Below the pieces are notes generated by a model. That model saw only the letters and a program-made list of their open reading frames with translations, did no database searches and was not told the DNA's origin. The position numbers were made by a program, and so were the translations under genes. Source: a virus. Taken from it: DNA of 64,000 nt. The stretch spans positions 1,544 to 65,543 of the IMG/VR virus record IMGVR_UViG_3300033143_005712; one strand, written 5' to 3'. Below, piece after piece: positions 3,324 to 56,400 of this stretch; position 1 is the stretch's first letter, and every line of letters starts with the position of its first letter.

Positions 3324-3324
3324 T

Positions 3325-3709: not shown

Positions 3710-3716
3710 TATTACT

Positions 3717-4297: not shown

Positions 4298-4518
4298 ATG
4301 GATTTATAAAAATATCAGTTGAATATGTACCAAAAGATATGTCAGCAGAACTTGCTAACGACCTTGATATGTATGAAGAAGGATTTTTATACATACGTCC
4401 TGAATACATTATGGCCTTTAATGAGAATTCAAAAGGTAAGATAACATTCAGAACAAATGATGGAGATGCTTGGATAGCAGACATGTCGATTGATGAATTT
4501 GTGAAACAACTACCATGA
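4294..4518 (+). CDS. Small hypothetical protein directly upstream of terminase
   Basis: ATGA coupling on both sides. Confidence 0.75.
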   Translation: MNGFIKISVEYVPKDMSAELANDLDMYEEGFLYIRPEYIMAFNENSKGKITFRTNDGDAWIADMSIDEFVKQLP

Positions 4519-35243: not shown

Positions 35244-37337
35244 ATGTCAGGAAGATTTTATAAAACAGCAAGAGCACAACACATGGATTATGCTATGAAG
35301 TATCCATCAGAGTTGTTATTTAAGGCTATTGCCAAAAAAGATGCTGAAATTGACCAAGAAATTCAGAGCACTGAGCAAATCAGGCAAGGTTTGATGGCAC
35401 AGGAAGCTAAAGCTAAGGGTTCTTTGGGAAGAGGTATGTATCCTCAGCAAGATGAAGAAGACTATAAAGCTGAAGTTGGCGGTTTTGAAGCTGAGATTGG
35501 AGAAATTACTCAATCTATCTATGATGATGCATACGGAAAAAGTAGGATGAGAGAAATTTCTGATGTCAGAAGTAGAGTTGCAGCCAGTATGACAACTGGA
35601 AATCTTGCAATGTTTAATAAGAATTTTAATGCTGGTAGAGATTTTCTTGAAACCAATAAAGATATCGACCCGGCAATAGTAGCTGCAGCTTATAAAGAAG
35701 GCATTGATAATTGGGGTAAGACAATTGATGACAAAACAGGTGAATACAGGACTCTCAAATTCAGAGATAATCTTCAAGATGCAGACATTCCGAATGAGGC
35801 ATATGATTGGGCAAGAGGAACGAGTAATACTTTGGGTACAGCAAATAGAACTGCTTTAACAGAAGCCAATCTGAAAAATGACAGAGACGTTATGAGAACA
35901 TTGTGGCAGAATGCAGAACTTGGTCTATTACCTATTACAGAAGGTACAGGAAAAGATATGAAAGTAATAGCTCCACAAGATGCATCTGAAGAACAGATGA
36001 GAATTGCTATTGACAAAGAAATTAAAAGACAAGCAGACCTTGCTGTTGCAACTACAATGAAGTATGAAAAAGTAAGTGGTAAAAAACCTAAAGAAGATAA
36101 AACTGTATATGCTCCTGACAGGGCTTATATCTCACCGGAGGGAACAGGTCTTACAAGACAAAGTGTTGCAGGACGGGCAATTGAACTAGGAAGAGCTAAC
36201 GGAGCAACTTCAAATGAAGAAGCAATACAACTTTACAAACAAGAAGTTGACAAACTGCTTGCTTCAGGAAATGTTACAAGTGGAGCACAGTATTTTGAAC
36301 TAATGATGAAAAGTGCTGTATTGGAAGAATACATTACAATAGGAAAAACACTATTATCAGCAGACAATATTCCAACAGACAATCCCAATATAATAAAGAT
36401 AAGTAAAAGAGAACAATATTTCGATGCACTTACTGCTAATAATACAATTCCTGTTGTTGGTGGGTGGGGCGACAGATTTGAGAAAGAGATTTATACTCAA
36501 GCTGTTAAATCTGTAAATAATTTTATCAAAGATAAATCAAGATTTAATAATACACCTTTGGAAGATAATATGGGAAGATTCAATGGAAAAAGTCCTAATG
36601 ATATGATTGACTCAGGTGTAATAAGACCTTTGATTGAAAACCCAAAGTATATTAAAGCTATAAAAGAAAAACTTTTTGATGACTATGCTGTAAATGTAGA
36701 TAATATGAAGCTTTCAAAAAAGAATGGTAAACACATACTTATATTGTATGCTGATAAAGGTTATATCGACAGCGATGAAAAACTGGAAAATAAACTTAAT
36801 TCTTCAGGATATGACGTAGAGGAAATGAGTTCTCCTTCTGATGTACCATCTTATAGAATTGAAGTACCATTGCCAGAATTGGTAGTATCTGCAACAGAAT
36901 ATGAAAATTTTGAAATCTTGGATGCAGAACCTATTCCTACACTTACAGTTAATTCTAAAGGTGGAAACTATTTTCGCAAACCTGCAGTACTTGATGGTGA
37001 AATTATTGACTTGTATATAGATGCAGAAGCTGTTGGAGACAATGATTATCTTGAAGCTGAAAATGCTGAAAAAATGGATAATTATCTTTCTACATTACAT
37101 TCTGAAATGCGTGCTGAACAGAAAGCAAAAGGATTACCAGAAAATTTCAGATTTACTTTGATTGAAAATGAGAACTCTATTACAGGTATAACAGTTACTT
37201 CACAAGGTTTTGTAGTATCCGAAGTAACAATAGATGAAACTACCGGAAAATCCACAGAGAAAGTAATGTCATTGGAAGATTCAAAAAGAATTTTAATGGG
37301 ATTTATGTATTTGTTACCACAAAGCTATGAAGAATAA
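35244..37337 (+). CDS. Ejected cargo protein 2
   Basis: 697 aa with helical N-terminus; directly upstream of the virion RNAP. Confidence 0.6.
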   Translation: MSGRFYKTARAQHMDYAMKYPSELLFKAIAKKDAEIDQEIQSTEQIRQGLMAQEAKAKGSLGRGMYPQQDEEDYKAEVGGFEAEIGEITQSIYDDAYGKSRMREISDVRSRVAASMTTGNLAMFNKNFNAGRDFLETNKDIDPAIVAAAYKEGIDNWGKTIDDKTGEYRTLKFRDNLQDADIPNEAYDWARGTSNTLGTANRTALTEANLKNDRDVMRTLWQNAELGLLPITEGTGKDMKVIAPQDASEEQMRIAIDKEIKRQADLAVATTMKYEKVSGKKPKEDKTVYAPDRAYISPEGTGLTRQSVAGRAIELGRANGATSNEEAIQLYKQEVDKLLASGNVTSGAQYFELMMKSAVLEEYITIGKTLLSADNIPTDNPNIIKISKREQYFDALTANNTIPVVGGWGDRFEKEIYTQAVKSVNNFIKDKSRFNNTPLEDNMGRFNGKSPNDMIDSGVIRPLIENPKYIKAIKEKLFDDYAVNVDNMKLSKKNGKHILILYADKGYIDSDEKLENKLNSSGYDVEEMSSPSDVPSYRIEVPLPELVVSATEYENFEILDAEPIPTLTVNSKGGNYFRKPAVLDGEIIDLYIDAEAVGDNDYLEAENAEKMDNYLSTLHSEMRAEQKAKGLPENFRFTLIENENSITGITVTSQGFVVSEVTIDETTGKSTEKVMSLEDSKRILMGFMYLLPQSYEE

Positions 37338-40300
37338 GGACAAAGACCCAACACTTAAAAATACAGATGGAGCAATTCCTATGAACGAACAGGAAGTAAA
37401 TGCTTTTATTGCTTCTAAAAAGCCTATGATTATGCGAGGTAAAAGAAGTGAAGAAATACCTCCTGCAGAAGTTTCTATGAAGCCTATGATTGACTCTCGT
37501 ATAATGACTAATGATTATATGAGTATTCCTATGGATAAAAGAGTACCTAAGTTTGACCCAAAGGTTCTTGAACAATTGAAAGGAAGTTTTGATGAATCAA
37601 AAAGTGCTTATAACGAACTTTTATGGAATAAGGCTGAAGCAGAAGCTAAAGCTAAAACTAACGACTCAGGAAACTGGTATGATGCTTATTCTAAGGTAAT
37701 CAAAGAAGGAGATGCCTTTGACTGGTTATCTGTTCCTCAATGGGCAATAGCTCATATAGAAACATTGGATGTTATCGGTTCTAGAACTGCTGCAAAAGTG
37801 TTTGGTGGAGAGGAAGAAGACTATGGTATTCCTGAAAAAGTATTCAATGTAGCAAAAAAGTTTGCTAGTGCAGAAGCTAACATAAAAGCAATTATAACTG
37901 GTGACATTGCTCGTATACTGGATGTTGCTGATTGGAGAGTTACAAATATTATTCCTACAAAACAGAGTGCTTATGCTTTTTACAGAGATGTAATAGGAAC
38001 ATTGAAAAGACATGGTGAGAATCTTGAAGCAACAGAATTCATGCAAAATCTCAATGAATCTCTTTATGAGTATCTTGATGAAACACCTCAGAAAGTAATT
38101 CCTTGGTCAGATAAAAAATGGGAACAATATAATGCTGAAACACAAAGAATAAGAGAAAAAGGAGAAGCTACAGACTTCTATGGATATTTGAAGAAAATGG
38201 ATAAAGCTTTTGAATGGCTTGATGACTGGATTGGAGATGAGGAAACAAGCAATTGGTTTACTGATTTAACAGATGCTAGTCAAAGTTCAAGGACTACGAG
38301 AACTGACTTAGTAACAGAATTTGCATTAGATAATGATGTTCCTTATTGGAGTATGGATGGTGCTAATTGGACTATAAACAATGGTGTAAATACACAAACT
38401 TCATTGACTGCTTTTGCTATTGAAGGTATGATACCCGGAGGACTTTTTGCAAAAATGAAAACGATTCCTATGCTTGTTAGAGGTGCAAAAACAGCAAAGG
38501 AAGCTCAGAATATGATTAGAGTAGGAAATGTTATTTTAAACAACAAATTTACTAGAGGTTTATCTTCTTTTTCTAAAAATACTTTAGTACCAACCATGAA
38601 AACTGGAATATCAGGTGCTGTACCTGCAGGAAGTGAAGTAGGACAAATTGGAAGAGATGTTGAGAGACAAGCTAAACTTATCTACGCTGAAAAATATGGT
38701 GGAGAACTTTGGAAACAACATTGGGAAAGGCAACAACAGATTTACTTTCGTCAAGCTCAAAGAGAAGGAAATGAAAAAGAAGTAATGTCTAGGATGCAAC
38801 AATATGAAGTTGAAGAAGTTGAAAGATTTTTTGTTGAAGTTCTGAAAGATAAAGAAACCTATAATAAAATTGTAAAACAATCAGCTCATGCAGCAAGAAT
38901 TGCGATAAAAGGGAATTCTCCAATGTATTTTATGAATTTTCCATTTGGTATGGCCCTTAATAATATGAGTGCATTTGCTAAACGTATGAGAGTAGGTTAT
39001 AAGAACCTTGCAGGTGGAAGTATAAGTACAAGAGCTGCATCAGTAAAAAACCTTTCTGTCGGGAAAACTATGAAAGTATTAGGACTTGAAATGGCTTCTG
39101 AGTCATTGATTGAAGAAGGATGGATAAATCCTTGGGGTGAATGGAGAGGAATAGCTTATGCTAAAGGAGAAACTCTTACAGGAGATAAATTCTCTGACAG
39201 ACTTTGGGAAGGTGAACTCTTAGAGTCTATGCTTTGGGGTGCAGCCGGAGCTTTAATGATGGGTGCTCCTCAAGCAGTATCATATAGGTCTAACAAAAAG
39301 GCATACAAACATTACATGGAGAAGTATAATGAGTATGTAGAATCTCTTCCTGAAGATGCAAAAAAAGCATTATTCAACATTATTACTTCAAATTCTTCAA
39401 CTTTCAAACAAGCACAACTTGAACAAGAAATCAAAGAAGGTAATGCAGCAGGACAAGATACAAGAGCATTAAATGCATTAATACTTCGTTCTCAAGCTCT
39501 TACAGCTTTCAAAACAGGTATGACAGAACAACTGTTAGATATATATCAACAAATAGCTAATACTTCAGAAAATGTTGACGAAAAACAAGCTGCACAAGAT
39601 ATTATTGCTGAGATTCTTGAACTTGAAAAAGTATACATTGATACTCAAAAATGGGAAGATAATTTAGCTGTCTTTGATATAGTAGCTGATATAAAAGCTA
39701 ATAGTAAAGTAGCTCTTCAGAATGACATGATAATTGAAGCAGAATTGAAAGCTGCTGCAGTAGAACAACTTGAAGCTGGAAAAAAAGCTTTCGAAAATGC
39801 TGACTATTATTTTGAAGAAGATGGTACTTTAAAATTTACTGGTAAGGATGCTGATGCCTTCCGTGACAGAATGCTAGTAAAACCAAAAGTTAAGCATGTA
39901 TCAAATTATAATAAAGCAATACTTAGCAATGCTGATATAACTCAAGAATTAATTGATTCTGAAAACCAACTTAAAGATGTAACATCTGACCAGTATCAGC
40001 GTGATGTACGTGTTGCTAAAAAAGTAGAACAGAAAGTTGCCAAAAATTTTCCTGATTTATTCTCTTCTGAAACCGGTAACGAATTCCGTCAGAAGATGAG
40101 TGCAATATTCAAAGGAGAAAAACTCAGTAAGAAGCGTGAAGCTATATTATACAAGAAATATAAGAATATGTATAATGGCTTTAAAAAGTCAAGACAACAA
40201 AATAGCATGGCCCCTAAAGGTTATGTTCCTATTGTAAGCAAAAACAAGTTGATTCATCGTCAGACACAAAACATTGCCAAAAAATTTACCAGAAATAGAA

Positions 40301-43300
40301 AAGCTGACAAAAATGTTGATGAAGACGCTGCTCCTATCAAAGTTACACCAGACGATGAAAATTATGCCAAAGCAGAGGTAAATAAGTGGATTAATAATCG
40401 CAAATCTGCAGGAGATACTAATCTAACCTTTGATAGGATGATTAGGGATTATCTTGGCTTAGATGAAAAACAACTTACTGAAAATGAACTTGATTCAAGA
40501 AAAGAAGATACTGAAGCAATGTTTGACATGCTGGAATATGGCTGGAGTAAAGGTGGTCATGGAGAAACTAATGGAAAAGAAGTATATCAAGAACATTTTG
40601 TAGAGGAATTTTCTACAGAGAACTCTCTACAGCGTTTCAGAAACAGGATTAAAGGAAGGACTGTAAAAGCAGAACCTAAAGAAACTACTCCTGTAAAACA
40701 AGAGAAAGAAGATGAAATTACAGAAGAAGAGTCTGATATCATTGATGAAGAAACAAAACAGGAAACAAAAGAAGCTATAGAAGCAGGTGAAATTGTTAAT
40801 GAAGAAAAAGAAGAAGCTGAAGAAACAGTGAATAGTTTAGGTAGATATATTACACTGAAATTCAAAGCTTATAAATCCGCACCTATTTCACTAATGACTG
40901 GAATACGAAAAATAAAAATCTTTCGTGTCAAAGATTCTAACATTGATGGTGTAAGACTTTTTAATGTTAAGAAATTCAAAAAAGGTGTAAGACTGGCTTT
41001 AAAAATTACTACTGAATCGGATTATAACATTCCAATTGTTTATAGAATAAATGGAGAAGAACAGAAATTTGAAAAGACATCTAAGAGTGATTACGGAGGT
41101 TTTTTTGAAAATAAATACGGAAGAATAACTCATTTCAGATACAAAAATATAACAGTCGAAATTGAAGGAGAAGGATTTAAGTTCAGTCAAGTTCCAACTG
41201 AAGTTGGCCCTGATGGTAGATTGCAAGATGCAGTAGAATATAAGTCTTATGACCATAGAGAACCGGGAACTGTACTTAATGATGAAAAAAATCCAAATAC
41301 AAGACATCATCAGCATAAAGTCACTGATGACTTTTTTGTTGTGAATGATGGAGATTTCAGTGCTCTCAATAATCCTAATGTACATGAAGTCAGAGTAAAA
41401 CGCATTATAAACAATCCTTCTAAAGAAGGAGGAAAGTCTTATATTGAACTTACTATTGTTGATAAAGATGGAAAAGAAGGAAAATTACGAAAAGTTGAAG
41501 TTGAAAATGACAGAGAACAGAATGTACCTATGGGTGCTGCAGATGAATCTGACGGAGCTATGGTTGCTTGGATTGATACTTATCAGACTCTATTGCTTGA
41601 TGATACGCATGATGAAGCAGCCATCAGAGCTGCACAGAAGAACACTATTGCTTTTCGTAAAGATGTAGTTAATGGTAAGAAAAAAACAGCAGCTATTCAT
41701 GCCAATGCTCCTATCGGTAATCCTCGCTTTGATGAGATGACAGAAAGTACCAGTATTGCTGAACAAGACCCCACAGCTATTCTCGGTCAAAGAATTAGGG
41801 GTGTTATAAGGATAGGCACTGAAGTTTTTGAGAATAAGAAAAGGAAAATTGTAAATAAAGATGAAATTCTTAATGAGAATGTAGATGCAAAAAGTCTTCC
41901 TATTGATATCAGATTTATAGGTATTAATGAAAATGGTGTGGAACTGTATGCTGCATTTTTTGCACATGGACTAGAGAAAGGAGCTAAGCAAGATTCTGTT
42001 GGTAGTGGTAATATATTGTGGGTACTGCGTGCTTATATTACAAAGTTTGATACTGAAGGTAAACTCAACCATATTATTTCACCTAAGACACGTAAAGCTA
42101 TTACTGAAAAACTGCATACTATTACTAGTGGATATCCTATTTCCGATTTCAGGGGAGTAAAAGAATATCTGAATAACTTCACAATTATGGATGTTCCTTC
42201 TGATGTGAAGTTGGATAAGAAGATGAATAAGACAAAATTCATGACTTATGTAAACTCTTCGAAAATTGCACCCGGTCAACCTGTTCTGATGATGAATGGG
42301 CCAGTAATATTTTATGCTATAAAAGGAGAAGGAATTCCTACAGGTGGTGTAAACGAAGATGGTAGTCCTAAGACTACTAAGATGATAAGTATTTATCTGA
42401 GTGAAAGTAATTTTAATGCTAAAGAACTTGAAACATTATTGACAAGTATTGAGACTAAAGCTTCTTCGTTTAAGAAGAGTTTCAATTCAGAATATTCTCG
42501 TAAAGAAGGAAAGATTGCTACATTCGAAAAGAACGGTATAATAAATGAAATGGATTATACTGAACATCAGAGAAATAATCTTACAACAAATATAAAAGCT
42601 TTTGAGGAAACATCAGGAGGAGAGACCTTTTATGTAACAGCAACAAATACATCAGTTTCTATTGATACCAATCAAGAAGGAACTGCTCAAGCTGTAGCTC
42701 AGACACCTAGTAAAAAAGAAGAAATTATAGGTTTACAGATGGAAACCTTATCTGAGGAACTACCTGAAAGTAAGACCACTGAAGAAGCTATCGAGGACAA
42801 TAAAACTCCTGATGAAATAAAACTTCTCATCGAAATACGTAGAGCATTAGGACTTTTAGGTTCAAAGAAGATTAATAAGTTATTTGCAACGATTGACTTA
42901 AGTGAAGACTTCTCTTTAATCAAAGAGGCTTTGAATACACCTGCCTTTTTTCATACTGTACCGGGTGTAAATCCTTTACAGAAAGAACAAATTGTACTTA
43001 CCGTAGTAAATGCCATTATCAATAGTGGGAAAAGTCTTACAAAAGAGAATATTCAAGAAATGATTAACAACGGTTTTGTTAATCAAATAGTTGAAGGTAA
43101 AAGTAAATTTCAGAGTTTGATTGACAAACTTGATGCTCTTATTGAAAGTGGCTCTGAAATTGAGAGTCTTGTAGAAATTTCTCAGGAACTAAAAGACAGT
43201 ATGAAAATATTTGATACTGTAGAAAAGAACTGGAAGAAGTTTGAAGATGACATCAGAGTACAATTATACAAATATGCAGGACTTGATGAAAATCAAGCTA

Positions 43301-46300
43301 TTAGTGAACTTGAAAATCATCATGAAGGCCAAGACAGGATTTTTGACAAAGAAAGTACTGAACTTGTAAGTAAAAATACTCTTCCTGAAGAAATGAAGAA
43401 GTTCTTTGCTGGTATTGAAAACTGTTACACTGATGGTACTGTTATACAAGGATTTTTAGGTGTACCAACTTATGTACCTTTCGATGTAGCAATCAATATT
43501 GTTACACGCATCATTGGAAGCAATCCTAAAGCAGGAATGACCTTTGAAGATGTAATTAAAATTCTTGGAAGAGAGAAAGAAGCTGTTCCATTTTTAGGAA
43601 ATGTTATTTCTAAGCTCAGTGACCCAAAAATTATGACTGAGCAGATAAAGAACAGATTTATGACTCACATGGTTAAGCATAATATGACCATGCAATATGT
43701 TCAATATAAGTATGATAGAAAGAGTAAGCGTTATGAACTCAGAGTATTTGATACCAACTCTTCACAGGTAGAAAAAGTAATATTCAGAGAATGGATGAAT
43801 GGTGTAAAAGCTTCTAAACTTGTAAGAGTTGATGAAGATTCACGGGACTCTATGATTAATAAAGATGAAGCACAAACACTTCATACTGAATTTCGTGAAA
43901 TGGTTGAAAGTATTAACAAAGACAATAAAACAAATCAATTTGTAAAATGGCTTACTAAAAATCTAGCTGGTAAGGATTATACAAAACAAGAAATACTTAA
44001 AATTCTTACACAAACTAAGAAAAGTGCTTTTACAGAACAAGTAAGTGAAGCTATTGACAGAAATCTTGATGAAAACAAAACCTTCTCCAAAACAGAACTT
44101 ATTGAATGGTTACCTACATCCGAGTTCTCAAATGAAAGACTTATTAACTGGTTAGCAAAATTCAATATTGTACTTTCAAACAGAACTATAGAAAGCCTAA
44201 AAGTCAACGGATATGTTGACCATAAGGGTCAAGAAGTAAACTTCACTTCAATGTTTGAGGAATCATCCAAATCAAGTGGTGTATTTGGTGGAATAGCTTA
44301 CAAACTTTCAGAGTATATCAATACCAGTGAAGGCAGGAAAATTAATATCACAGAAGACCCTCAAATGCATCCTTTCAGAAGCATTGAAACTTCATTAAAG
44401 TCATTAGCTAAAGAAGAGGGCCGTTTTAGTAGCAGGGCAGTTACTATCTCATTCAGAGATGCAGGAAAGAGTTATTCTGGATTTGTACCACCCAAATTTG
44501 CTACAGACCGGATTGACGAACTTAAAGAAGATACTGATACAAGAAAAAATCTTCAAAAAGACCCATATTCTTCAAATAGTATGCTACTGAAATTACTGAC
44601 AGGAGATTATGGTACTGAAATTCAAGAATTACTTAGAGTAGTTCATATAGGTGGTTCTGCAATGCGTAAAGCAGGAGAAAGCAATCCTACTGGAAATAAA
44701 AATGCTATTATTAATCTTGCTGATGGTGACCAAGAAATTACAAGACAAGGCTTTTTTCAGGATACAAGGCAAGGTAAAATTTCAGTCAGCAATACATATA
44801 ATGGTTTGAAATTACGTATTGCAAATATGTTCTTTCCTACAATGAGTGATAAGAAGCAGATATTAACAATGACAATGCCTGTTCTCGACCTTACCTCAAA
44901 AGAAATAGGATATAAGAATAATGAAGTACAAGCTAATGATGCAGTAAAAGAAGCCTTATTCCAACAGCTTGTAGTTCCTGAACTTAAAAGAATTATAGCA
45001 TTTCATAGAGGAGGTGGACAGGAAAATAATATTGAAGGAGTTGATTTAGCTTCTCAAGTATTTTTAATGATACCTCAACTTAATGAGTTAAAAATCGGTA
45101 ACCGAAGACTTATAGAAGTTCTTGTTAGTTTGCAGGATAAAGAGATAGCAAAGACAATGAAAGATGATGTTATTACAGATGACATTAAAGATGAGGCTAT
45201 TAAAATTATTATGAAAGTTGTTACCAAAGAGGTAAATAACAAGATTCAGAACTGGAAAGACTCAGGAATTATTACCGAAAAAGGTAATCCAGAAATGCTT
45301 AATGATGAGTATTTCAATCCTGATGATGGTGAAAGAAGGTTTGTTGATAATAAATCAGAGCTTGCTGCAACAGACTTTGTAATCAATAGTCTTATATCAT
45401 ATTCCAACATGTTTCAGACTGTTGGAGGCGATATTGCATATTACTCTCAAGATAAAGCCTTTGATAAATTTCCAGTGGATGTAGAAACTATTAAGAGATT
45501 TAAAGAAATTGATGAAATTGAATACGGAGCTGTAATAGAGCAGATTGAAACTCTTTATAATACCGGAATTATAAATAAAATAGCTTATAAACATCTGAAA
45601 GAGACTGTTAAGCCGCTTCCTTATATGGGAGATAACAAACAAGCTTACATAGACTTGACTAAAAATATCGGTACAAATCTAGGAAAACGTCTCGCATTAA
45701 TGCTTGCACCCGGTTTGAAACCTTATGGTTTGGATACCAATTACAGGCAACTGTTTTTAAAAGACTCTGTAGATATTGCTGACAATATGGAGTATATCGT
45801 TGAACTACATTATGGTGAAGATGGAGTAAAAAGGTTCAATGAGATAATGGCTATGGATACTACCGAAGAAAATAAAGAGGGATTTATAAAAGAGGAATTT
45901 CCAACTATTAGTGCATTCTTTGCTGTAGATTCTACTGATGCTCAAGAATATACAACAGCAAAAGAGCATCTTGATATTTTATTTGCATTGGGAAGAATAT
46001 CAGAACAAGAGCATAAAGACTTTACAGCTAAAGCTGAAGACCAGTATCGCAATGGTGTTACGAAAAGAAATAAACTTGAAGATAAAGAGCTTAGAGTTAT
46101 TTTTCAACCAATGAAACCTGTATATACAGGTTCTCATTTTGATGGACAAAAAATGAGAATGATGTATATTAAAACATCAGCTTATCCATTACTTCCTCAA
46201 GTAACTGCCGGTACAGCATTGGAAGACCTCAGAAAAGTTATGGATGAGGTACAGTATGGTAAAGAACTAGGTGGCATGAATGTAAGAGCTACTTATAAAA

Positions 46301-48948
46301 CAGGTGCAAAAGTAGGAGCTACAGTAACAGAAATTGACCCATTTGCTGTTGATAACAAAGGCAACTTAACTGTAGGAAAACTTACTGTAGATGAACTTGA
46401 GAAATCATCAGTAACTCTTGATAGAAGGAATTTCAGAATTCAGCAGGATGTACCTTTTCATGCTCTTGGAAGTGAAGAGAAAACAAGTGTGGTATCAATT
46501 GGTACTCAGTTGATGAAACTGCTCTTTGGTGACGGAGTAACAGATATTCAAGGTTTTCAATATGGAAAAGGGAAACCTAAGTCTGGAAAGGAACTTCTTA
46601 AAACATATAATGAAACTTTTGGAGAACTTACTGACCACCTCAAACAGGAACTTTATGATGAACTTGGATTAAACTCAAATGGACAACCTTTGAATCCTGA
46701 GTACTTTATGTCACAACTTTCTCTTATGTTACAAAGGGAAGCCAAGAAGAGGAATTATCCTCAACAAGATATTGATGCTCTTGAGATTATAGATGTAGGT
46801 GATAGAAAAGGTGGAATTTCAGGATTTATATTCAGGAATCCTCTTTGGATGTCTTCCAATGCAATGCGTTATGAGTCTTTACTCAATTCATTGATTACCA
46901 ATAAGTTAATAAAACTTAAGATGCCCGGTTATGCTTATGTTGCCGGGTCACAGAAAGGATTTGAGACTGCACATAAGGTAAAAGATGAAGAGACTGCTTC
47001 AAGAATAATTTATACGAAGCATTACAATTCTAAAACAGGACTTATTGCAGCTCGTAAAGGAAAGAAAGCTCAAATACTCATTCCTTCAAGGTTTAGAAAC
47101 AGCAGAGGTGAGCTGATTGACTTATTTGAAGGAACTATAGATGCTAATAATAATGAAAGAAATCAAGGTAAGTACGTCAGAAAAGTAAATGGTGTATGGC
47201 AACTTAAAGAAAAAATGATTGATGGTGAACTTCTGGATGTTACATCATTCAGAATTCCAACTTCTTCTCATGTATCTGCATCTCAAGTAGAAATTGCAGG
47301 ATTCCTTCCACCTGAAGCGGGTGACCTTATGATTGTACCTAAAGAATTTGCTGTACAAAAAGGACTTGATTATGACATTGATAAGGAATTTTCTTACAAT
47401 TTATGGCACGCAACTGATGAAAATGGAAGAATTGTTGCACTAAATGAACACATTGACATTGATAAAATAAGTTTTAAGCTTGATGAAGCCAGAGAAGAAC
47501 TCAGACAAATTAGAATTGGTGATGCAAATTTCTACGAAAAATTAAAAGAAATTGAAAATCTTCCTGAAGATGAAGTAAATAACAAACTTGAAAAAGCTCT
47601 TGCTGCTATACTTAACAGTACAAAATATAAAACTACTACAGTAGAAGATGTAGTAATTCGAATAAAAGCATTACAAAAAATAAGGAAAAAATATCTTGAG
47701 AATGAGATTGTAAGAATACACTCTGCAGTAATGGGTAGTGATAATCCTGAAGTACAACGTAGGATTAACAAGGTGCTTTCAATGGATTATGCTTCACAAC
47801 AGGCTGAAAAGCTTCAAGATGAAGATGCTGAATTCAATACACTTTTATCTGATGAATATCAGACAAAGAAGATGAACTTAGGTGCTGTTGGTCAGATGGC
47901 TATTGGGGTCTATTCTAACTTTGTAGTATTCAATTCACTTCTCCAACAGTCTTCATCTAACATTTCAATCAATGTTGGTGATGCCGGACTTACAATAGGA
48001 AATTATAAGTCTGATGGTAAACTAGGAAGATATACCAATATCTTGTCTTCAAATACTAGCAAAATAATTGTAGATATTATCAATTCCAAAAAAGGTCTGC
48101 AAGAAACCAAAACTGCTCAAATTGAAAAACTCAAAGAAGGTTCTCTTACTTATTATGAAATTAGTGAAATAGTAAAAGACACTAAGATATTCATAGATGA
48201 GGAGGGAAATCGTACAAGTGAAAAAGAAGGTGGTATTGAAATAAATATTATGGATGACATAAGAACTACCTCTGAAGCATTTGCAGAACGTCAGAATACA
48301 GCTACTGACAATGAGAAAGAACAAATCTTGGGCCGGGTAGGTGTGAACTCTGGAACTATCAATGTAGATAGCATTCTTACTTTACTTGGATTTGATAAGG
48401 GTGAATATGTAAAAGATGCTAATGGAGAGTTAGTTTTAGATAAAGCTCGCAAACCTATAAGGATGTCCATATCATATCTGTTAATTTCTCAACCTATTGT
48501 AAAAGAGTATATTAAGCGTAAACAGAATAGAACTGCGAAAATCAATAAAATTTTTCCGACAAATGAAGAAATGCTTGCTGAACTTATTGATGAATTTGGC
48601 GGAATGGATTCTTTGAAGACAGATGATATATTGACTACTCAAAATATGTATGATGCTGCTAAAAACGGTGTTGATAATGGTATTCAACTTAATGCTTTAT
48701 TTATGTTCTTAAGAATTCAGGAATATAGTATGAGTTTAAGTGCTACGCAACAACTAGTAGGTATTATGAAGAATGGTCTTGATAAATCTCTGTTTAATAC
48801 AACATATTTGTATGAACTATTAAGTAATATAGCCTTCGATGAGAATTTTGAGAACATTACAGATATTATTGGAGATTTTAAATTTGGTGACCAAAGTAGG
48901 AGATGTATTTATAAGACCTACAACTATGATGGGCCATCTTATTGTTAA
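37327..48948 (+). CDS. Giant virion-packaged RNA polymerase, two-barrel type (3873 aa)
   Basis: FRIPTS...KGLDYDIDK catalytic loop (DYDID at 47368-47382, matching crAss-like DFDID), upstream MKPVY...IKTS.YPL motif, size and position. Confidence 0.9.
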   Translation: MKNKDKDPTLKNTDGAIPMNEQEVNAFIASKKPMIMRGKRSEEIPPAEVSMKPMIDSRIMTNDYMSIPMDKRVPKFDPKVLEQLKGSFDESKSAYNELLWNKAEAEAKAKTNDSGNWYDAYSKVIKEGDAFDWLSVPQWAIAHIETLDVIGSRTAAKVFGGEEEDYGIPEKVFNVAKKFASAEANIKAIITGDIARILDVADWRVTNIIPTKQSAYAFYRDVIGTLKRHGENLEATEFMQNLNESLYEYLDETPQKVIPWSDKKWEQYNAETQRIREKGEATDFYGYLKKMDKAFEWLDDWIGDEETSNWFTDLTDASQSSRTTRTDLVTEFALDNDVPYWSMDGANWTINNGVNTQTSLTAFAIEGMIPGGLFAKMKTIPMLVRGAKTAKEAQNMIRVGNVILNNKFTRGLSSFSKNTLVPTMKTGISGAVPAGSEVGQIGRDVERQAKLIYAEKYGGELWKQHWERQQQIYFRQAQREGNEKEVMSRMQQYEVEEVERFFVEVLKDKETYNKIVKQSAHAARIAIKGNSPMYFMNFPFGMALNNMSAFAKRMRVGYKNLAGGSISTRAASVKNLSVGKTMKVLGLEMASESLIEEGWINPWGEWRGIAYAKGETLTGDKFSDRLWEGELLESMLWGAAGALMMGAPQAVSYRSNKKAYKHYMEKYNEYVESLPEDAKKALFNIITSNSSTFKQAQLEQEIKEGNAAGQDTRALNALILRSQALTAFKTGMTEQLLDIYQQIANTSENVDEKQAAQDIIAEILELEKVYIDTQKWEDNLAVFDIVADIKANSKVALQNDMIIEAELKAAAVEQLEAGKKAFENADYYFEEDGTLKFTGKDADAFRDRMLVKPKVKHVSNYNKAILSNADITQELIDSENQLKDVTSDQYQRDVRVAKKVEQKVAKNFPDLFSSETGNEFRQKMSAIFKGEKLSKKREAILYKKYKNMYNGFKKSRQQNSMAPKGYVPIVSKNKLIHRQTQNIAKKFTRNRKADKNVDEDAAPIKVTPDDENYAKAEVNKWINNRKSAGDTNLTFDRMIRDYLGLDEKQLTENELDSRKEDTEAMFDMLEYGWSKGGHGETNGKEVYQEHFVEEFSTENSLQRFRNRIKGRTVKAEPKETTPVKQEKEDEITEEESDIIDEETKQETKEAIEAGEIVNEEKEEAEETVNSLGRYITLKFKAYKSAPISLMTGIRKIKIFRVKDSNIDGVRLFNVKKFKKGVRLALKITTESDYNIPIVYRINGEEQKFEKTSKSDYGGFFENKYGRITHFRYKNITVEIEGEGFKFSQVPTEVGPDGRLQDAVEYKSYDHREPGTVLNDEKNPNTRHHQHKVTDDFFVVNDGDFSALNNPNVHEVRVKRIINNPSKEGGKSYIELTIVDKDGKEGKLRKVEVENDREQNVPMGAADESDGAMVAWIDTYQTLLLDDTHDEAAIRAAQKNTIAFRKDVVNGKKKTAAIHANAPIGNPRFDEMTESTSIAEQDPTAILGQRIRGVIRIGTEVFENKKRKIVNKDEILNENVDAKSLPIDIRFIGINENGVELYAAFFAHGLEKGAKQDSVGSGNILWVLRAYITKFDTEGKLNHIISPKTRKAITEKLHTITSGYPISDFRGVKEYLNNFTIMDVPSDVKLDKKMNKTKFMTYVNSSKIAPGQPVLMMNGPVIFYAIKGEGIPTGGVNEDGSPKTTKMISIYLSESNFNAKELETLLTSIETKASSFKKSFNSEYSRKEGKIATFEKNGIINEMDYTEHQRNNLTTNIKAFEETSGGETFYVTATNTSVSIDTNQEGTAQAVAQTPSKKEEIIGLQMETLSEELPESKTTEEAIEDNKTPDEIKLLIEIRRALGLLGSKKINKLFATIDLSEDFSLIKEALNTPAFFHTVPGVNPLQKEQIVLTVVNAIINSGKSLTKENIQEMINNGFVNQIVEGKSKFQSLIDKLDALIESGSEIESLVEISQELKDSMKIFDTVEKNWKKFEDDIRVQLYKYAGLDENQAISELENHHEGQDRIFDKESTELVSKNTLPEEMKKFFAGIENCYTDGTVIQGFLGVPTYVPFDVAINIVTRIIGSNPKAGMTFEDVIKILGREKEAVPFLGNVISKLSDPKIMTEQIKNRFMTHMVKHNMTMQYVQYKYDRKSKRYELRVFDTNSSQVEKVIFREWMNGVKASKLVRVDEDSRDSMINKDEAQTLHTEFREMVESINKDNKTNQFVKWLTKNLAGKDYTKQEILKILTQTKKSAFTEQVSEAIDRNLDENKTFSKTELIEWLPTSEFSNERLINWLAKFNIVLSNRTIESLKVNGYVDHKGQEVNFTSMFEESSKSSGVFGGIAYKLSEYINTSEGRKINITEDPQMHPFRSIETSLKSLAKEEGRFSSRAVTISFRDAGKSYSGFVPPKFATDRIDELKEDTDTRKNLQKDPYSSNSMLLKLLTGDYGTEIQELLRVVHIGGSAMRKAGESNPTGNKNAIINLADGDQEITRQGFFQDTRQGKISVSNTYNGLKLRIANMFFPTMSDKKQILTMTMPVLDLTSKEIGYKNNEVQANDAVKEALFQQLVVPELKRIIAFHRGGGQENNIEGVDLASQVFLMIPQLNELKIGNRRLIEVLVSLQDKEIAKTMKDDVITDDIKDEAIKIIMKVVTKEVNNKIQNWKDSGIITEKGNPEMLNDEYFNPDDGERRFVDNKSELAATDFVINSLISYSNMFQTVGGDIAYYSQDKAFDKFPVDVETIKRFKEIDEIEYGAVIEQIETLYNTGIINKIAYKHLKETVKPLPYMGDNKQAYIDLTKNIGTNLGKRLALMLAPGLKPYGLDTNYRQLFLKDSVDIADNMEYIVELHYGEDGVKRFNEIMAMDTTEENKEGFIKEEFPTISAFFAVDSTDAQEYTTAKEHLDILFALGRISEQEHKDFTAKAEDQYRNGVTKRNKLEDKELRVIFQPMKPVYTGSHFDGQKMRMMYIKTSAYPLLPQVTAGTALEDLRKVMDEVQYGKELGGMNVRATYKTGAKVGATVTEIDPFAVDNKGNLTVGKLTVDELEKSSVTLDRRNFRIQQDVPFHALGSEEKTSVVSIGTQLMKLLFGDGVTDIQGFQYGKGKPKSGKELLKTYNETFGELTDHLKQELYDELGLNSNGQPLNPEYFMSQLSLMLQREAKKRNYPQQDIDALEIIDVGDRKGGISGFIFRNPLWMSSNAMRYESLLNSLITNKLIKLKMPGYAYVAGSQKGFETAHKVKDEETASRIIYTKHYNSKTGLIAARKGKKAQILIPSRFRNSRGELIDLFEGTIDANNNERNQGKYVRKVNGVWQLKEKMIDGELLDVTSFRIPTSSHVSASQVEIAGFLPPEAGDLMIVPKEFAVQKGLDYDIDKEFSYNLWHATDENGRIVALNEHIDIDKISFKLDEAREELRQIRIGDANFYEKLKEIENLPEDEVNNKLEKALAAILNSTKYKTTTVEDVVIRIKALQKIRKKYLENEIVRIHSAVMGSDNPEVQRRINKVLSMDYASQQAEKLQDEDAEFNTLLSDEYQTKKMNLGAVGQMAIGVYSNFVVFNSLLQQSSSNISINVGDAGLTIGNYKSDGKLGRYTNILSSNTSKIIVDIINSKKGLQETKTAQIEKLKEGSLTYYEISEIVKDTKIFIDEEGNRTSEKEGGIEINIMDDIRTTSEAFAERQNTATDNEKEQILGRVGVNSGTINVDSILTLLGFDKGEYVKDANGELVLDKARKPIRMSISYLLISQPIVKEYIKRKQNRTAKINKIFPTNEEMLAELIDEFGGMDSLKTDDILTTQNMYDAAKNGVDNGIQLNALFMFLRIQEYSMSLSATQQLVGIMKNGLDKSLFNTTYLYELLSNIAFDENFENITDIIGDFKFGDQSRRCIYKTYNYDGPSYC

Positions 48949-51900
48949 AGGTATTACAACAGGACATGCTCTTTCTCTTGAAACAAACAATATAGGACAA
49001 CCATTATTTCCTTATACTAATGATAGTGTAGAGCATGTAATGAATGAAATAATGAGAATGACCAAAGCAACTCAATATGGTAAGAATGAAGCTGTTGAGT
49101 TCAAAAATACTATGATGAAAGGTATTCGCAAGTTTATCAATAGTGGTCAGGAAAGTACTATTATAAATGGAAATACTGAAGGACAACGTAAAAGACTGTT
49201 TTTGGAACATGATGATGCTCCTTCACTAGCATCTTACCTGTTGGGTCTGAAGACAGCAAAAAACAATGTGATAACAACTAATTATTTATTGAATGATATG
49301 CTTCAATATATACCATCAAATAATGATGGTATATCAACCATATTCTTTGATAACAGTGCTGATAATGCTTTTAACGAAAAGAATGTTTATGTAGCATTCG
49401 AAAATTTGATAGCAGACCCTCAAGCTCTTCCTGATAATAAAGCAATATCGGATGAATCTATTCTTCCTAATGAACAGGGTGACTTGTATATGGAACAACA
49501 ATTTGCTTTAACTTCTCATGAGATTCAATCAATGGAAAGCTTTGACAAACAAGTTATTGTCACAGCTAATAACATGGGGATGAATAAAGGTGAAACAAAG
49601 CTTTTCAAGACAAAAGATAATAATTCAAGAGGTGACCGGTATAAAGTTACTTATTTGGGCAAGATGACCAAGAATAACTATGAAGGAAACTTTGTATTGG
49701 ATAGTGGACAACCAAGAACCAAATGGACTCAACAGACTGAAGAGTTTGATGCAGGACAAGAAAAATCTATATTCAGAATTGAACCTATTTATACAACTGT
49801 AGATTTAGCTGAAGACCTCACATCTTATTCATTTCTTTCAGGAGGTGTACAAGGGCCAATTGAATTTGGAAAATATATTCCTTTAAGAATGCTTGAAGAG
49901 ATGGGATACACAGATAATATGAAGAATATTGACATTACAGATGGAGTAGTAATGGCAAAACTATTAGGAATGACTGCAGGTATAAGTAATTTTGCTATTC
50001 AGTTTTTTCAACATAATCCTGATACTCTTCCTTCTTTTACAAGAAAAAAGCTTAATCTTGAACAATATAAAGTAGGCAAACTCAACAATATACCTGAAGA
50101 ATTAGTACCTAAGATTGAAAATGCAGATGGAACTAAGACTCCTCATGCTATGTTTACTATAAAGAATACAGTAGAAAACAATTTTAATGTATATATTTAT
50201 GGTGAGTATTCAGATAACAAAAATGTTATCAGAAAAGGTTATATCAGATTACCACAAGTAGGTGTTCACGGAATGAGTGAGTATGACATTAAGAAAGTTA
50301 ATGTAAACAGTATCTTGAACAGTAAAGTAAAGCCAGCTCAAGTAACTTCTATTCAGCCAGAATCAACTGAATCTACAGATGCTTATGGTATATTATCAAA
50401 TAGTCCCAAAACTACACTTCAGTCTATTGCTACCAGAGATGATTCATTAGGTGAACTTGCTAAAGTTCTGATTCCTATTAATGATAAAGGATTGACAATA
50501 GGTGTTGATAAACTTATAGGTGAAGATGGTAAATACAATCCTACACAACATCATGCTACAATCTCTACAAATGTTGTACTCGGAGAAGATAGAAACAGAC
50601 AAGCAGAAGTATTTTTGCATGAGTATATTCATGGTCTTACATCAAAGGAGTTTAACGAATATTTTGACCATGAAGGAAACTTCAAATCGGGTATAACCAT
50701 TAATGATGTTCCTCAGCATATCAAAGATGTTTACAATATGTTTTTAGATGCCAAAGATGTCTTTGGAATTACTGATGAGAAACTAGCTCAGGTGAGAACA
50801 AAGAAGGCAGAAGAAGGAGTTTTGAATCCAGAAGAAATCTTTATTTATGGTTTCTCAAATGTTAAAGAATTTGTTACAGCTACTATGACTGAACCAACTT
50901 TCAGAGAAAGGCTGCAACAGCAGAAATATAAAGACTCAAACTTCTTTGATAAGTTTACCAAGATAATCAAAGATATGCTTAAAGCTCTCAATCCTAATGC
51001 TGAGAATACAATGTTAGATGCTGTAAGCGGAGTTATCCTGAATATGGTTATAGCAGATGTTGTTCAGGTTGAGCCAAAACAGGAAGAAACATCAGTAAAC
51101 ACAATGCTTAATAATATTTTTGATTATGTGGATGAGGATACTGGAGAGGTATATAGTGTAGAAGGAGAACAAGCAACTATCAGGATGCAACCTGATAATG
51201 TTACTAAGATAAAGGCTGGCACAAAGACCACTACTATAAGGAGTAAAAAAGAAGCTGATAAAATTGGTATTCCAGTAGGAGAAACTAAAGTTGTTGTATT
51301 CGAAGATGTACCATTTACTGTAACCAATAGAGGAGAACTCACAATTGAAGAAGCAGGAGGTGTTGAAGCAATGATTGCATCTGAAGATGTAGGCTCTGTT
51401 GAGAATTTCAAATTTGCTCAAACTAAAAATTGGATAAATGGAAAAGGAAAACTCTTTGTATATGATATCAGTCCTATAGCGGAAACTGAAAGTGAAAAAG
51501 AAGTTGTACGATATGTTAATACTGATACGGGGGAAATCACCTCAACTCCACCAACTAAGCCAGAACCAACTCCTGTGCCCAAAATAGTAGAACCGCCTAC
51601 AGGTAAAAAAGAATTTACTTACAAAGGAGATACTATTGAAACAGAATTTCCATTGGGAAAAGAGCAAAAAGATGCTTTGATAACATTACTTTCTTTTGTA
51701 GAAGGTAATGCTACAGATAATAAAGTTGTTAAACAAGCTCTTGCTCAAAATGTAATTACTCTCCAAGGTAGTGCCGGTACAGGAAAAACTACTATTATTG
51801 GATATTTGCAGAAAATGTTGGAAAAAAGAGGCACATCTCATCTTATACCAACTTATGTTGCACCTACTCACTTTGCTACAGTACAACTTGGAATGGCAAC

Positions 51901-53437
51901 TTTAAAACTTGGAAATAAACACCTTCCTTCTACAGTTAAAAGTACAGTATTTGCAATTGATAAAAGAGACGCTCAAGGAAGAAGAATTGGTGATGAAAAA
52001 GAATGGTTGTTTAGTGCTAAAATAAATAAGAGAATAGGAAAATATGGAGCACCTTTAATGATTGTTGATGAAGCCTCAATGTTAAGCAAAGAGGAAATTG
52101 ATGGATTACAAGCAGCAGTTGAAAATAGAGGTGGAAAACTAATTCTTATGGGTGATATTGCACAAATTCCTGTTGTAGATACAAGAAAAGGTATTACGGA
52201 AAAAAATGTTTCTCCTGCTTTTGAGTTATCTAAATTTGTTCTTGATAAAGTATATCGTCAATCAGAAGGGCCACTTTTAGATTTACTTACAAAAATCAGA
52301 ACCAACATTGATTATAAAAGTTACAAGACACCAAAACATGAATCTATTCGAATAGTTCCAACAAAAGAATTTGTATCATCCTTAATGAAAGACCTAAAAG
52401 AAAATGCTGAAGAAACAGTTATTATTGACTACACTAACAAAGGTGTAAAAGCATCTAATGCTTCAGCAAGACAATTGCTTGGATTTTCAGGCGAACCGAA
52501 AGTTGGAGAACAAGTAATTGGTTATGGTGGAAACAATACTAAACAAATTGAAGATGGTGACATTGCAAACAGCGTTAAATATGAAATAACAGAAATAAAA
52601 AAAGATGACAGTGGAATAATTCATATTAAGGGAAAATCTAGTGTTCTTGGTAAAATGGCTGAAAAATATGAAGGTGTATCTGAAGAGGCTGAAGGAAAAT
52701 ATATGCAACTGTCTTTAGATGATTCACTTGGATTTGACCTGACTGAAAAACAAATGGAAAACAATAACAGACTTCTTTCTGATATTTTTAAAGATATTGT
52801 AAATACTGTAAATGAAATTAGTGTAGCAACAGCAGCAAGAGATTGGGGACTAAAAAAACAATTAACAAATGTACTTGAAGGACATGAAAGAAGTCTTGGT
52901 TCATATGACGTTGGTGACAATTATATGTATGACATACAGAATGACAGAGTTGTAAAAAAAGATAAGAATATAATAGCACGTACACCAAAGAACTTACATG
53001 GAAAAGTGGTATTGAATAAAGGAATTGATTATGGATATGCTATTACAATTCATAAAAGTCAAGGGTTGACTGTAGAAAATGTATATTTTAATATGGAAAG
53101 TTTGAATAGAGTACCAGATTTGAAAATAATGCTTGATGGTAAACAAATAAATTCAGAGAAGAATACACTATATTATGTTGCAATGTCAAGAGCTTCAAAA
53201 AAAGTTGTAATTAATGAAAATGAAGCTTCATTTACAGATACATTTATCAGTGAAAAGAAGCCTGCATCATTTACCCCAATGCACCCTTCAGAAGGTGATT
53301 TAACAGGAACTAATCCGCCTGATTTATCTCCTGCTAAAAGACAAGAAATACTCAACAACGAATATCAGTATCTTGTTGATGATATTAATGATACCTTTGG
53401 TAATACAAATATTAACAATCTTAAATGTAGAAAATGA
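48839..53437 (+). CDS. RNAP C-terminal continuation: zincin protease + ASCH domain + Dda/RecD-like SF1 helicase
   Basis: HEYIH at 50618-50632; IKAGTKTTTIRS ASCH motif at ~51210; GSAGTGKT (51767-51790), IVDEASML, LMGDIAQIP, VYRQ, YAITIHKSQG, YVAMSRA. True start uncertain (frameshift, or ATG at 48926). Confidence 0.85.
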   Translation: MRILRTLQILLEILNLVTKVGDVFIRPTTMMGHLIVKGITTGHALSLETNNIGQPLFPYTNDSVEHVMNEIMRMTKATQYGKNEAVEFKNTMMKGIRKFINSGQESTIINGNTEGQRKRLFLEHDDAPSLASYLLGLKTAKNNVITTNYLLNDMLQYIPSNNDGISTIFFDNSADNAFNEKNVYVAFENLIADPQALPDNKAISDESILPNEQGDLYMEQQFALTSHEIQSMESFDKQVIVTANNMGMNKGETKLFKTKDNNSRGDRYKVTYLGKMTKNNYEGNFVLDSGQPRTKWTQQTEEFDAGQEKSIFRIEPIYTTVDLAEDLTSYSFLSGGVQGPIEFGKYIPLRMLEEMGYTDNMKNIDITDGVVMAKLLGMTAGISNFAIQFFQHNPDTLPSFTRKKLNLEQYKVGKLNNIPEELVPKIENADGTKTPHAMFTIKNTVENNFNVYIYGEYSDNKNVIRKGYIRLPQVGVHGMSEYDIKKVNVNSILNSKVKPAQVTSIQPESTESTDAYGILSNSPKTTLQSIATRDDSLGELAKVLIPINDKGLTIGVDKLIGEDGKYNPTQHHATISTNVVLGEDRNRQAEVFLHEYIHGLTSKEFNEYFDHEGNFKSGITINDVPQHIKDVYNMFLDAKDVFGITDEKLAQVRTKKAEEGVLNPEEIFIYGFSNVKEFVTATMTEPTFRERLQQQKYKDSNFFDKFTKIIKDMLKALNPNAENTMLDAVSGVILNMVIADVVQVEPKQEETSVNTMLNNIFDYVDEDTGEVYSVEGEQATIRMQPDNVTKIKAGTKTTTIRSKKEADKIGIPVGETKVVVFEDVPFTVTNRGELTIEEAGGVEAMIASEDVGSVENFKFAQTKNWINGKGKLFVYDISPIAETESEKEVVRYVNTDTGEITSTPPTKPEPTPVPKIVEPPTGKKEFTYKGDTIETEFPLGKEQKDALITLLSFVEGNATDNKVVKQALAQNVITLQGSAGTGKTTIIGYLQKMLEKRGTSHLIPTYVAPTHFATVQLGMATLKLGNKHLPSTVKSTVFAIDKRDAQGRRIGDEKEWLFSAKINKRIGKYGAPLMIVDEASMLSKEEIDGLQAAVENRGGKLILMGDIAQIPVVDTRKGITEKNVSPAFELSKFVLDKVYRQSEGPLLDLLTKIRTNIDYKSYKTPKHESIRIVPTKEFVSSLMKDLKENAEETVIIDYTNKGVKASNASARQLLGFSGEPKVGEQVIGYGGNNTKQIEDGDIANSVKYEITEIKKDDSGIIHIKGKSSVLGKMAEKYEGVSEEAEGKYMQLSLDDSLGFDLTEKQMENNNRLLSDIFKDIVNTVNEISVATAARDWGLKKQLTNVLEGHERSLGSYDVGDNYMYDIQNDRVVKKDKNIIARTPKNLHGKVVLNKGIDYGYAITIHKSQGLTVENVYFNMESLNRVPDLKIMLDGKQINSEKNTLYYVAMSRASKKVVINENEASFTDTFISEKKPASFTPMHPSEGDLTGTNPPDLSPAKRQEILNNEYQYLVDDINDTFGNTNINNLKCRK

Positions 53438-56400
53438 GTTGTTTTAAGAATAAAATAGCGAAAGAGAACTTCAAGAAGTTAACAGAAGTATTTGGAAGTA
53501 AGGACACTGCTTTAACTTTGATAAGTGCAAATAATGGATACTCATTGGAATTTGATAAAGATGGAAATCCAAGTGTTCTATTCAAGCAAATACTGGACAT
53601 TGTAGGAAATAAGGAACAGGCGTTTATACTTAAATCTACAATTTATAAAAGAGCATTTTTAGATGAACCTTTTTTAAGCGACATATCAGAGTCATTTGCA
53701 GAAGACGATGCTCCTAGAAAAAAAATAACTATGGGTGTTATGAAATCTATTGTATATGAAGAAGCTATTTCAATAGGTACTACAGTCAAACCTAAAGGAG
53801 GTCATAATGATAATGTAAAAAAAGCCGGCACGAATACTCTTTATAGTGACAATCCAGCAAGAACTGCTGGTATTATTAACTCAAGATATGAACAAGATAT
53901 TGCATCTGTTCAAAATGGACATGTACTTATTAATCCTAGTGATTCGTATATTGACCATATGATAAAAGTTGAAAACCAAAAACGAGCTGATGCTGAAAAC
54001 TTGAGAATGATAAATGAGTTTATTCAAAATGAAGAAGAAGCTAATTATCACATACTCAAACCTTTTGATGATTATGGTAATCCACTTTTTGAAACTCAGG
54101 AAGAGATGGAAGATTCTGCTTTACCTAGAGAACTTACCCGAAGTGATAAACAAGGTGATTTCATGAAGTATAAAGAATATGTTGCTAATGATATTAGCAA
54201 ACTTCAACAAAGGCTTAATGCACTTATAGGCAAGAACAAAACAACTTATGATAGAGCTGAATCTCATGCTTTAACTGAAAAAATAGCAAGAATACAACTT
54301 AGAATCAAAGAACTCAAGGAACGTAAAAAAGAATTAACTTCTACAGCAGCTGTACTTGAAAATATTGAAGGTATGGCTGCTACTGATTTGACAAGAGTAC
54401 AAAATTTACTTAGTTCTAAATCAACCAGTAGAGACCTTATTGAAGCTCGTGACATTATTACATGGTATATGTCTTTGGGAGAATTTGTTGTAAAAGCAAA
54501 CCATCCTTTCTTCAAGGATAGTCTGGAATATGATAATGAAAAAATGAAAAAGGCTTTTATGAAAATTTATGACAATTTCAAAGAAATGCAAGGAAAGCTT
54601 GATGATATGAATATGAAACATATCGAGGCTGCATTTATTGCTCATAGAAATATAAAAGAAGTAAAGGATGAAAAAGGAAAAATAGAAGCTTATACATTCG
54701 GAGATACCAAAATTGAAAAAGGAAATGTAATGGATTATCTTTTCGGAGATGTTCATGATATTGATAAATTATCTGCATTATTCTTAGACCCCACTCTTAC
54801 TTATGATTTTAAAAGAGGAGAAGGCTTTTCAGAAAGTGTTATTCCTCAAATTATGAGTAGTTTGTTTGTTGACAGGATTTCAGAAAAAATGGCTTATGGT
54901 CAGGAAAAGATGGCTATTATAGATACCTTATTTCATAAACTCAGAGGTATAATCAAAGGTGACTACTCTATATTTTATCAGAAGGATTCCAGAGAATTTC
55001 AAACAGAATTTCTTATAAATCCTTTCAAATCGGAATGGTTCAGTTTGAAAACCTCAATTGAATTGGATGAAGAAAAAAGATTTGAAAGAATAAGAAAAGA
55101 TGGTGAATTTATTGATATACGCAGACTTCCTGAAGTTAAAGAAGCATTCAAAAATGCAGGATTTGGTTTTAGATTTACTAGTGATGTTGATGCAAAAAGG
55201 TATTCTGAAAGACTGAAAGCAAAAATAGGTGCAGGTACTGGTAAAGAGAATTATGAATACAAAAGGATTGTTGACTCTCAAATAAAACTTATTGACCAGT
55301 TTACATTTGAAAGAGCAGCATTTGTTAAAGAAAGATTTCCAGAAAAAACTGTTGATGATTTATCTCCAAAAGAAAGAGAAATTCTTGAACAATATGATTT
55401 GGAAAATAGTCCTTTTCATGTATTTAATGTACCAGAAACAAATCAACATTCTCATATAGTTGATGGAGAAGTTGTACAAATAACTCCAAATGCAAAATTC
55501 AACGAATTTATTCCTAATAATGAAAACATAGAAAAATATAAAGACCCAAGATTTGAGACAATTAGCGATAATTCTGAAATGTACAGATTATGGAATGAAG
55601 TAAGTGAAGTATTATTATATGTAAACAATGTTTTAGCCAGTGTAGGTCAAGACAGAGTTACATTCAACTCTTTACTTGCTATGGAGAAACAATTTCGGAA
55701 ACAAATAGGTAGAACTGATTTACCTCTAGGTTCTATGGTTAAAAATGCTCATAGTAAAATAGTTGGAAAAATTATAAAAGGATTAGGTGTAAAAGAATAC
55801 GAGTTTACCGGAAAAGAAAATGATGAAGAATCTATCAATTATGGTAATATGAAAAGTACTAAAGTACTTGTTGATAGAAAAAACGGTAATTATCAGAGTA
55901 TGCTCAAGACTTTTGAAATGACTATTACAGATGGTATAAAAATAAAGACTTTAACATCGAAAAAAGATATTCCTAACAATGCAAAGGTGACCATAACAGA
56001 TGAACTTGTTGATTTTCTGAAAAAAGTTATGATAGAAGAAGACTTCAATGAGTTTATAAAACTTAAAAATAACAGTTATGATTTCTTAAAAAAAGCAATT
56101 CGTACTGGTGCAAGACGAGAAATTATTGACCAGCATCGTATGGATTTACCCAAGGTATTACGTCATTTTATTTCTCATGCTATAAGAGTTGATGCCGCTA
56201 ATGAAGTTGCACCTACTATCTTACTTATGCAGAACTATTATAATCAATTAACAACACCAAATATTAAAGACAAAAGAGGCAAAGTTGTAAAAGAAGGAGG
56301 AGAACAAAGAATTCGTGGAGAAAAAAGAGTCGACCAATGGATTGAAACTGCCGTAAAAGGTAATTTTGCTGAAAAAGGAGCACCAATAGGAAAGAAAATG

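Follow-up and report, generated by a model that had tools for sequence, protein, structure and literature searches.

In crAss-like phages, the virion RNA-polymerase block occurs in both fused and split layouts, and in Cellulophaga phage phi14:2 its members gp67, gp66 (the virion RNA polymerase, PDB 6VR4) and gp65 are separate genes (bioRxiv 10.1101/2020.03.07.982082). A second described system is gp32 of Flavobacterium phage FpV4, which has homologues in 29 F. psychrophilum phages (genus Fipvunavirus) and is annotated as a 'virion structural protein'. No paper was found that links FpV4 to the crAss-like phages. The locus considered here lies in a viral DNA stretch of 64,000 nucleotides (nt), called the window throughout, which covers positions 1,544 to 65,543 of the IMG/VR virus record IMGVR_UViG_3300033143_005712; the record itself is a metagenomic contig of 67,859 bp, classed as linear and ~72% complete. 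The gene in question encodes a fused crAss-like virion RNA-polymerase polyprotein, a type already known, and the phage is a relative of the FpV4 group of Flavobacterium phages. In the window, however, the gene is interrupted by a change of reading frame. The record does contain this break, but only one of two near-identical contigs has it, and it is very probably the scar of a net 56-nt deletion, a one-off lesion that involves no programmed device.

The intact form of the gene resembles the phi14:2 block in several ways. Residues 139-1790 of gp66 are collinear with the family (E ~1e-39), the DFDID motif of gp66 aligns with DYDID, and a zincin HExxH domain follows the polymerase (in phi14:2, HEIMH at amino acid (aa) 245 of gp65). 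The block also closes the structural module, behind the genes for terminase, portal and head proteins; that these lie upstream in the window fits such a module. A difference is that what phi14:2 distributes over three genes is, in the intact form here, one open reading frame (ORF) of 5388 aa, which also includes an SF1 helicase. For FpV4 gp32 and its homologues, identity to the polyprotein is ~30% over >2200 aa, and gp32, a single 4287-aa ORF, runs across the break point with a linker between ..IGDY and IGNYY.., but it is without the helicase tail and without the frame break.

As it stands in the window, the gene is read as two overlapping ORFs. ORF1 (37327-48948, + strand) encodes 3873 aa and ends in ...IIGDFKFGDQSRRCIYKTYNYDGPSYC followed by a stop codon, while ORF2 (48839-53437, + strand) is read one base off, in the +1 frame with respect to ORF1, and encodes 1532 aa from ATG 48839. 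The +1 frame is open from position 48833 and the two ORFs overlap by 110 nt; this layout, with a +1 frame that stays open for ~1500 codons, is as an earlier note made from the sequence had described it. The frame that shows homology to single-ORF relatives changes within a 16-nt stretch. Alignments of ORF1 with distant relatives reach ...IIGDF (end at 48879), the alignment with a near-identical sibling protein reaches Q3856 (CAA, 48892-48894), and the alignment of ORF2 begins at V20 (GTA, from 48896). Beyond these limits each ORF carries an extension that matches nothing. The last 17 codons of ORF1 (SRRCIYKTYNYDGPSYC, then TAA; 48895-48948, + strand) are out of frame, show homology in no relative and overlap the conserved VGDVFIRPTTMMGH block that is read in the +1 frame. 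ORF2 begins with an open but non-homologous leader of 19 codons (48839-48895, + strand), and relatives match ORF2 from residues 17-20 only. The +1-frame opening before the switch (19-21 codons) and the 0-frame opening after it (17 codons) are of lengths expected by chance in 34% GC DNA; within ORF1, runs of at least 21 codons make up 19% of the off-frame open runs. The gene caller placed the start of ORF2 at GTG 48887, and the recorded proteins P0160 and P0161 accordingly have 1516 aa, beginning MTKVGDVF or VTKVGDVF.

The nature of the break emerges from comparison with a sibling contig of 72,182 bp. By exact look-up, the 90%-identity cluster of ORF1 includes P0162, a protein of 5388 aa encoded on that contig, which consists of residues 1-3856 of ORF1 (3 mismatches), 19 further aa (VTDASSATIQEWMRAGYVS) and residues 20-1532 of ORF2 (0 mismatches). 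The first part corresponds to the N-terminal 3856 codons of the giant virion RNA-polymerase polyprotein (37327-48894, + strand; 99.92% identity to P0162 residues 1-3856), and the last to its C-terminal 1513 codons with the last polymerase domains, the zincin and the helicase (48896-53437, + strand; 100% identity to P0162 residues 3876-5388). The 72-kb contig also encodes exact copies of several further window proteins, and the two contigs are therefore the same phage. Nine other large proteins of the window are letter-identical to recorded proteins, most of them on the sibling contig, which upholds the earlier observation that no other large gene in the window is broken.

Between the two parts, a single base, A48895 (48895-48895, + strand), stands in place of the 57 nt that in the sibling encode VTDASSATIQEWMRAGYVS (P0162 residues 3857-3875). 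With this net loss of 56 nt (3n+2), everything downstream is read in the +1 frame. Judged from the protein alone, the final lost codon of the sibling would be TCA. As had been proposed, the frames can be joined, to give 5369 aa, by dropping one base at the switch; however, the intact gene has 5388 aa, and what separates the two sequences is the exchange of 57 nt for 1 nt. An indel therefore stands as the best class of explanation among those first put forward, but it is a net 56-nt deletion of 19 linker codons and not one extra base, and it may be a real mutation instead of a fault of assembly. The back-translated lost peptide is absent elsewhere in the window. Near-identical junction DNA was not found with the ORF1 tail or an anchored pattern in viral contigs, with the ORF2 head in metagenome contigs, or with the lost peptide in either set, although such blanks carry little weight. 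An exact 9-mer, TGACCAAAG, is present at the scar (48888-48896) and again 171 nt downstream (49059-49067) in the same frame (VTK and MTK, respectively); repeats of this kind are no more numerous than chance would give.

More distant relatives also hold the region in one piece. The profile phrog_16227 ('virion structural protein', 4401 positions) matches ORF1 at E = 1e-224, and its far end also matches residues 311-728 of ORF2. FpV4 gp32 aligns to ORF1 through ...IIGDF and to ORF2 from VGDVF. When the first 760 aa of ORF2 were compared with 1.84 billion representative proteins, 204 matches were obtained, the great majority being proteins of 3900-5800 aa in which the region lies at about positions 3400-4400; the closest of these matches begin at ORF2 residues 17-20, exactly at the frame switch. 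About 150 representatives hold the region inside single giant ORFs, as do all 29 of the 29 cultured Flavobacterium psychrophilum phage genomes that possess it, in each case inside one 'structural protein' ORF. A set of 51 relatives that match both flanks of the break was compared across the junction, and every one (51/51) is continuous there, a frameshift being needed in none. The same split was not seen in any long relative. ORF1 and ORF2 are thus pieces of one gene, the intact form of which is a single ORF of 5388 aa, and the alignment of relatives across the junction, which the earlier note had suggested as a check, gives the same answer from the sibling and from the ~150 continuous representatives.

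The same 51 relatives define what has been lost. Between the conserved motifs '..l[iv]G[de][fy]' and '[iv]gd..kpTT' they carry a linker of 10-70 aa, usually 14-22, which is poorly conserved apart from a GY (or GF) motif that is nearly always present 3-4 residues before its end. The sibling linker carries this motif (..RAGYVS). In the window, the linker is reduced to five codons and one base, with no GY in any frame, so the lesion is confined almost precisely to the linker, and the conserved blocks on either side are intact. A simple 1-nt homopolymer error was considered and rejected, as it would leave a linker of normal length with GY readable in one frame, and none is present. On the polymerase, the break falls between profile positions 3432 and 3445, that is, at about residue 1790 of the 2180 of gp66. 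The gp66/gp65 boundary of phi14:2 corresponds to about aa 350 of ORF2, whereas the break in the window lies inside the gp66 equivalent. The break point marks an inter-domain linker, ~390 residues ahead of the end of the gp66-like polymerase.

A programmed +1 (or -2) ribosomal frameshift within 48880-48896, for example at CAA-A, would give both a short and a full-length polyprotein, and was among the options raised at the outset; it now deserves next to no credence. Skipping one base joins the frames (..GDQ-VGDVF..), and AGG, a less-used Arg codon (12%), is found two codons downstream. However, the break is absent from the 99.9%-identical sibling and from all long relatives, including the ~150 continuous representatives, and the site arose by loss of the conserved linker. 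The codons at the site, TTT AAA TTT GGT GAC CAA AGT, are all common in the genome and none is a stop; AGT accounts for 29% of Ser codons, and no shift-prone P-site codon stands before a stop or a truly rare codon. Folding of 48870-48990 gives z = +0.49, with 135 of 200 shuffled sequences folding at least as well. The sole AGGAG (48898-48902) is downstream of the switch, on the wrong side for a prfB-like stimulator. Indeed, with the prfB type of +1 site (CUU-UGA-C with an upstream Shine-Dalgarno sequence) the locus has only the formal geometry in common, the downstream frame being +1, and differs in being without conservation, an A-site stop or starved codon, an upstream stimulator or a structure. 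Since the sibling and the relatives are continuous, the site was made by the deletion and the signals are absent, programmed frameshifting is unsupported.

A further question is whether the deletion existed in the phage or was introduced when the contig was built. A true deletion in the phage population is slightly favoured over an assembly fault, because the loss falls almost exactly in a stretch that is freely variable in length, with both conserved flanks untouched. The opposite possibility is that the sampled genome carries a complete linker and that the 56 nt were lost in assembly or consensus calling, for example by a wrong bubble path between strains with linkers of different length. 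This is a serious contender, if the less probable of the two. Relatives have the gene as one ORF, and so does the sibling at 99.9% identity; a population consensus would not be expected to carry an essential gene in broken form; and variation of linker length from strain to strain can confuse assemblers. However, deletions of 56 nt are not what short-read assembly typically gets wrong. The repeats around the scar amount to chance 9-mers, none long enough to collapse; the contig is free of breaks elsewhere; and a random artefact would have a chance of only ~0.4% of falling wholly within a 19-aa linker of a 5388-aa gene.

Several considerations weigh against a real, one-off deletion. A gene that is essential and conserved throughout would oddly carry a lethal lesion in a consensus contig, which favours either an artefact or a split that the phage tolerates. 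The assembled sequence alone does not separate a true deletion from misassembly, and the placing of the exact deletion end points, together with any microhomology at them, comes from protein comparison only and is to be read as approximate. In addition, P0148, a protein of 288 aa from a distant relative (an ENA contig of 8,210 nt), starts with MKSVYIKPTT exactly at the equivalent point. P0148 is the only one of ~135 matches that starts at the break-equivalent point, and could represent an independent split or a fragment.

As read, the DNA gives 3856 matching residues with a junk tail of 17 residues, and then a detached remainder of 1513 codons. If the deletion is real, such a genome may be defective for its own polymerase and depend on intact co-infecting genomes, a dependence on helpers that is conceivable for one cycle because the polymerase arrives as packaged protein. 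Alternatively, ORF2 might be translated separately, from GTG 48887 or from ATG 48839.

The latter case amounts to a real deletion that is tolerated, with two polypeptides acting in trans and ORF2 starting at GTG 48887, at ATG 48839 or, by termination-reinitiation, at ATG 48926. This is unlikely, but has some points in its favour: only a flexible, length-variable linker has been removed and the conserved flanks are whole, crAss-like phages are known with both fused and split layouts of this block, start codons are available in frame upstream of the first conserved residue, and P0148 of the distant relative begins at the same point. However, the cut lies inside the gp66 equivalent (at about residue 1790 of 2180), where no natural boundary is known, and an overlap of 62-110 nt is atypical for phage gene pairs. 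A promoter and terminator scan gave no promoter or other start signal above background, and 99.9% identity to the intact sibling leaves no time for adaptation. A start at ATG 48926 would moreover lose ten conserved residues. Re-initiation at the ATGATG at 48926, which the earlier note had listed as a natural arrangement, may follow from a real deletion but is not an evolved arrangement, as the sibling is unsplit and the ATGATG lies downstream of the conserved VGDVFIRPTT. It is likewise doubtful, and if anything a shade more so, that the deletion is both real and viable, in which case the injected polymerase would be made as two polypeptides, the C-terminal domains, zincin and helicase being produced from an internal start and packaged in trans.

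Whatever its origin, the break interrupts a protein whose identity is supported from several sides. A profile built from ORF1 and 8 relatives matches PDB 6VR4 (phi14:2 gp66) at E = 8.8e-40 in four collinear stretches, and a local hmmsearch against gp66 gives E = 4.4e-39, with gp66 residues 139-1790 mapping to profile positions 1677-3434. A phmmer search of PDB with the single ORF1 sequence gave no match; 6VR4 is reached by the family profile only. The catalytic metal-binding motif of two-barrel RNA polymerases, DYDID, is found at ORF1 aa 3348-3352 (47368-47382, + strand); the D.D.D pattern does not vary across the family, and the motif's aligned counterpart in phi14:2 gp66 is 1361-DFDID-1365. 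On the far side of the break, an AlphaFold model of ORF2 aa 20-350 has a predicted local distance difference test (pLDDT) score of 75. In a VIA-align comparison, this model finds 6vr4_B as the best of 48,161 chains (Z 9.0, root-mean-square deviation 3.6 A, 159 aligned residues), the next-best chain having Z 5.5; a Foldseek search with the model of the ORF2 N-terminal part gave no match at E <= 0.001. The profile match to 6VR4, the alignment of DYDID with DFDID and the match of the ORF2 20-350 model together support the name 'RNAP polyprotein' under which the locus was first described.

The remaining domains lie further along ORF2. The HEYIH motif of a zincin protease is found at aa 594-598 (50618-50632, + strand), and a profile matches 9sfn_G, an 'internal virion protein', at E = 3e-5 across the motif. 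A Dda/RecD-like SF1 helicase occupies aa 927-1466 (51617-53236, + strand), with matches to Pfam AAA_30 (E = 2.9e-18) and UvrD_C_2, to phrog_325 (Dda-like helicase, E = 2e-55) and to PDB 8jx6 and 3upu. Taken as a whole, the gene is best described as a crAss-like virion RNA polymerase polyprotein, with a gp67-like part upstream of the polymerase and with the zincin and the SF1 helicase downstream. Packaging in the virion is suggested by analogy, the sole support being the virion annotation, based on tandem mass spectrometry (MS/MS), of the FpV4 and phi14:2 homologues. Within ORF2, aa 214-319 (49478-49795) form a small beta-barrel in the AlphaFold model. Its similarity to PUA/ASCH-like structures is weak: Z is 4.3-5.0 for 3iuw, 2z0t and YqfB, and the Foldseek E is ~0.1. 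The one cysteine of ORF2 lies three residues from the C-terminus (..NNLKCRK; 53420-53434), and a Cys is found among the last six residues in 83 of 89 long relatives. The next giant gene, ORF3 (53434-58527, + strand; 1697 aa), overlaps the ORF2 stop codon by ATGA and shows 99.94% identity to P0164 on the sibling contig.

In practical terms, 37327-48948 and 48839-53437 belong in a single annotation, that of a disrupted gene whose intact product is a virion RNA-polymerase polyprotein of 5388 aa. The value of the observation lies chiefly in annotation and quality control, and the locus is not to be cited as a case of frameshifting. Provided that the deletion is genuine and the phage can live with it, the linker would be a natural split site for expression of the enzyme or for structural work on it. 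Should the two-polypeptide form prove true, the linker would be a place at which the giant polyprotein tolerates splitting, and the window would hold a freshly caught step in the fuse-and-split evolution of crAss-like phages.

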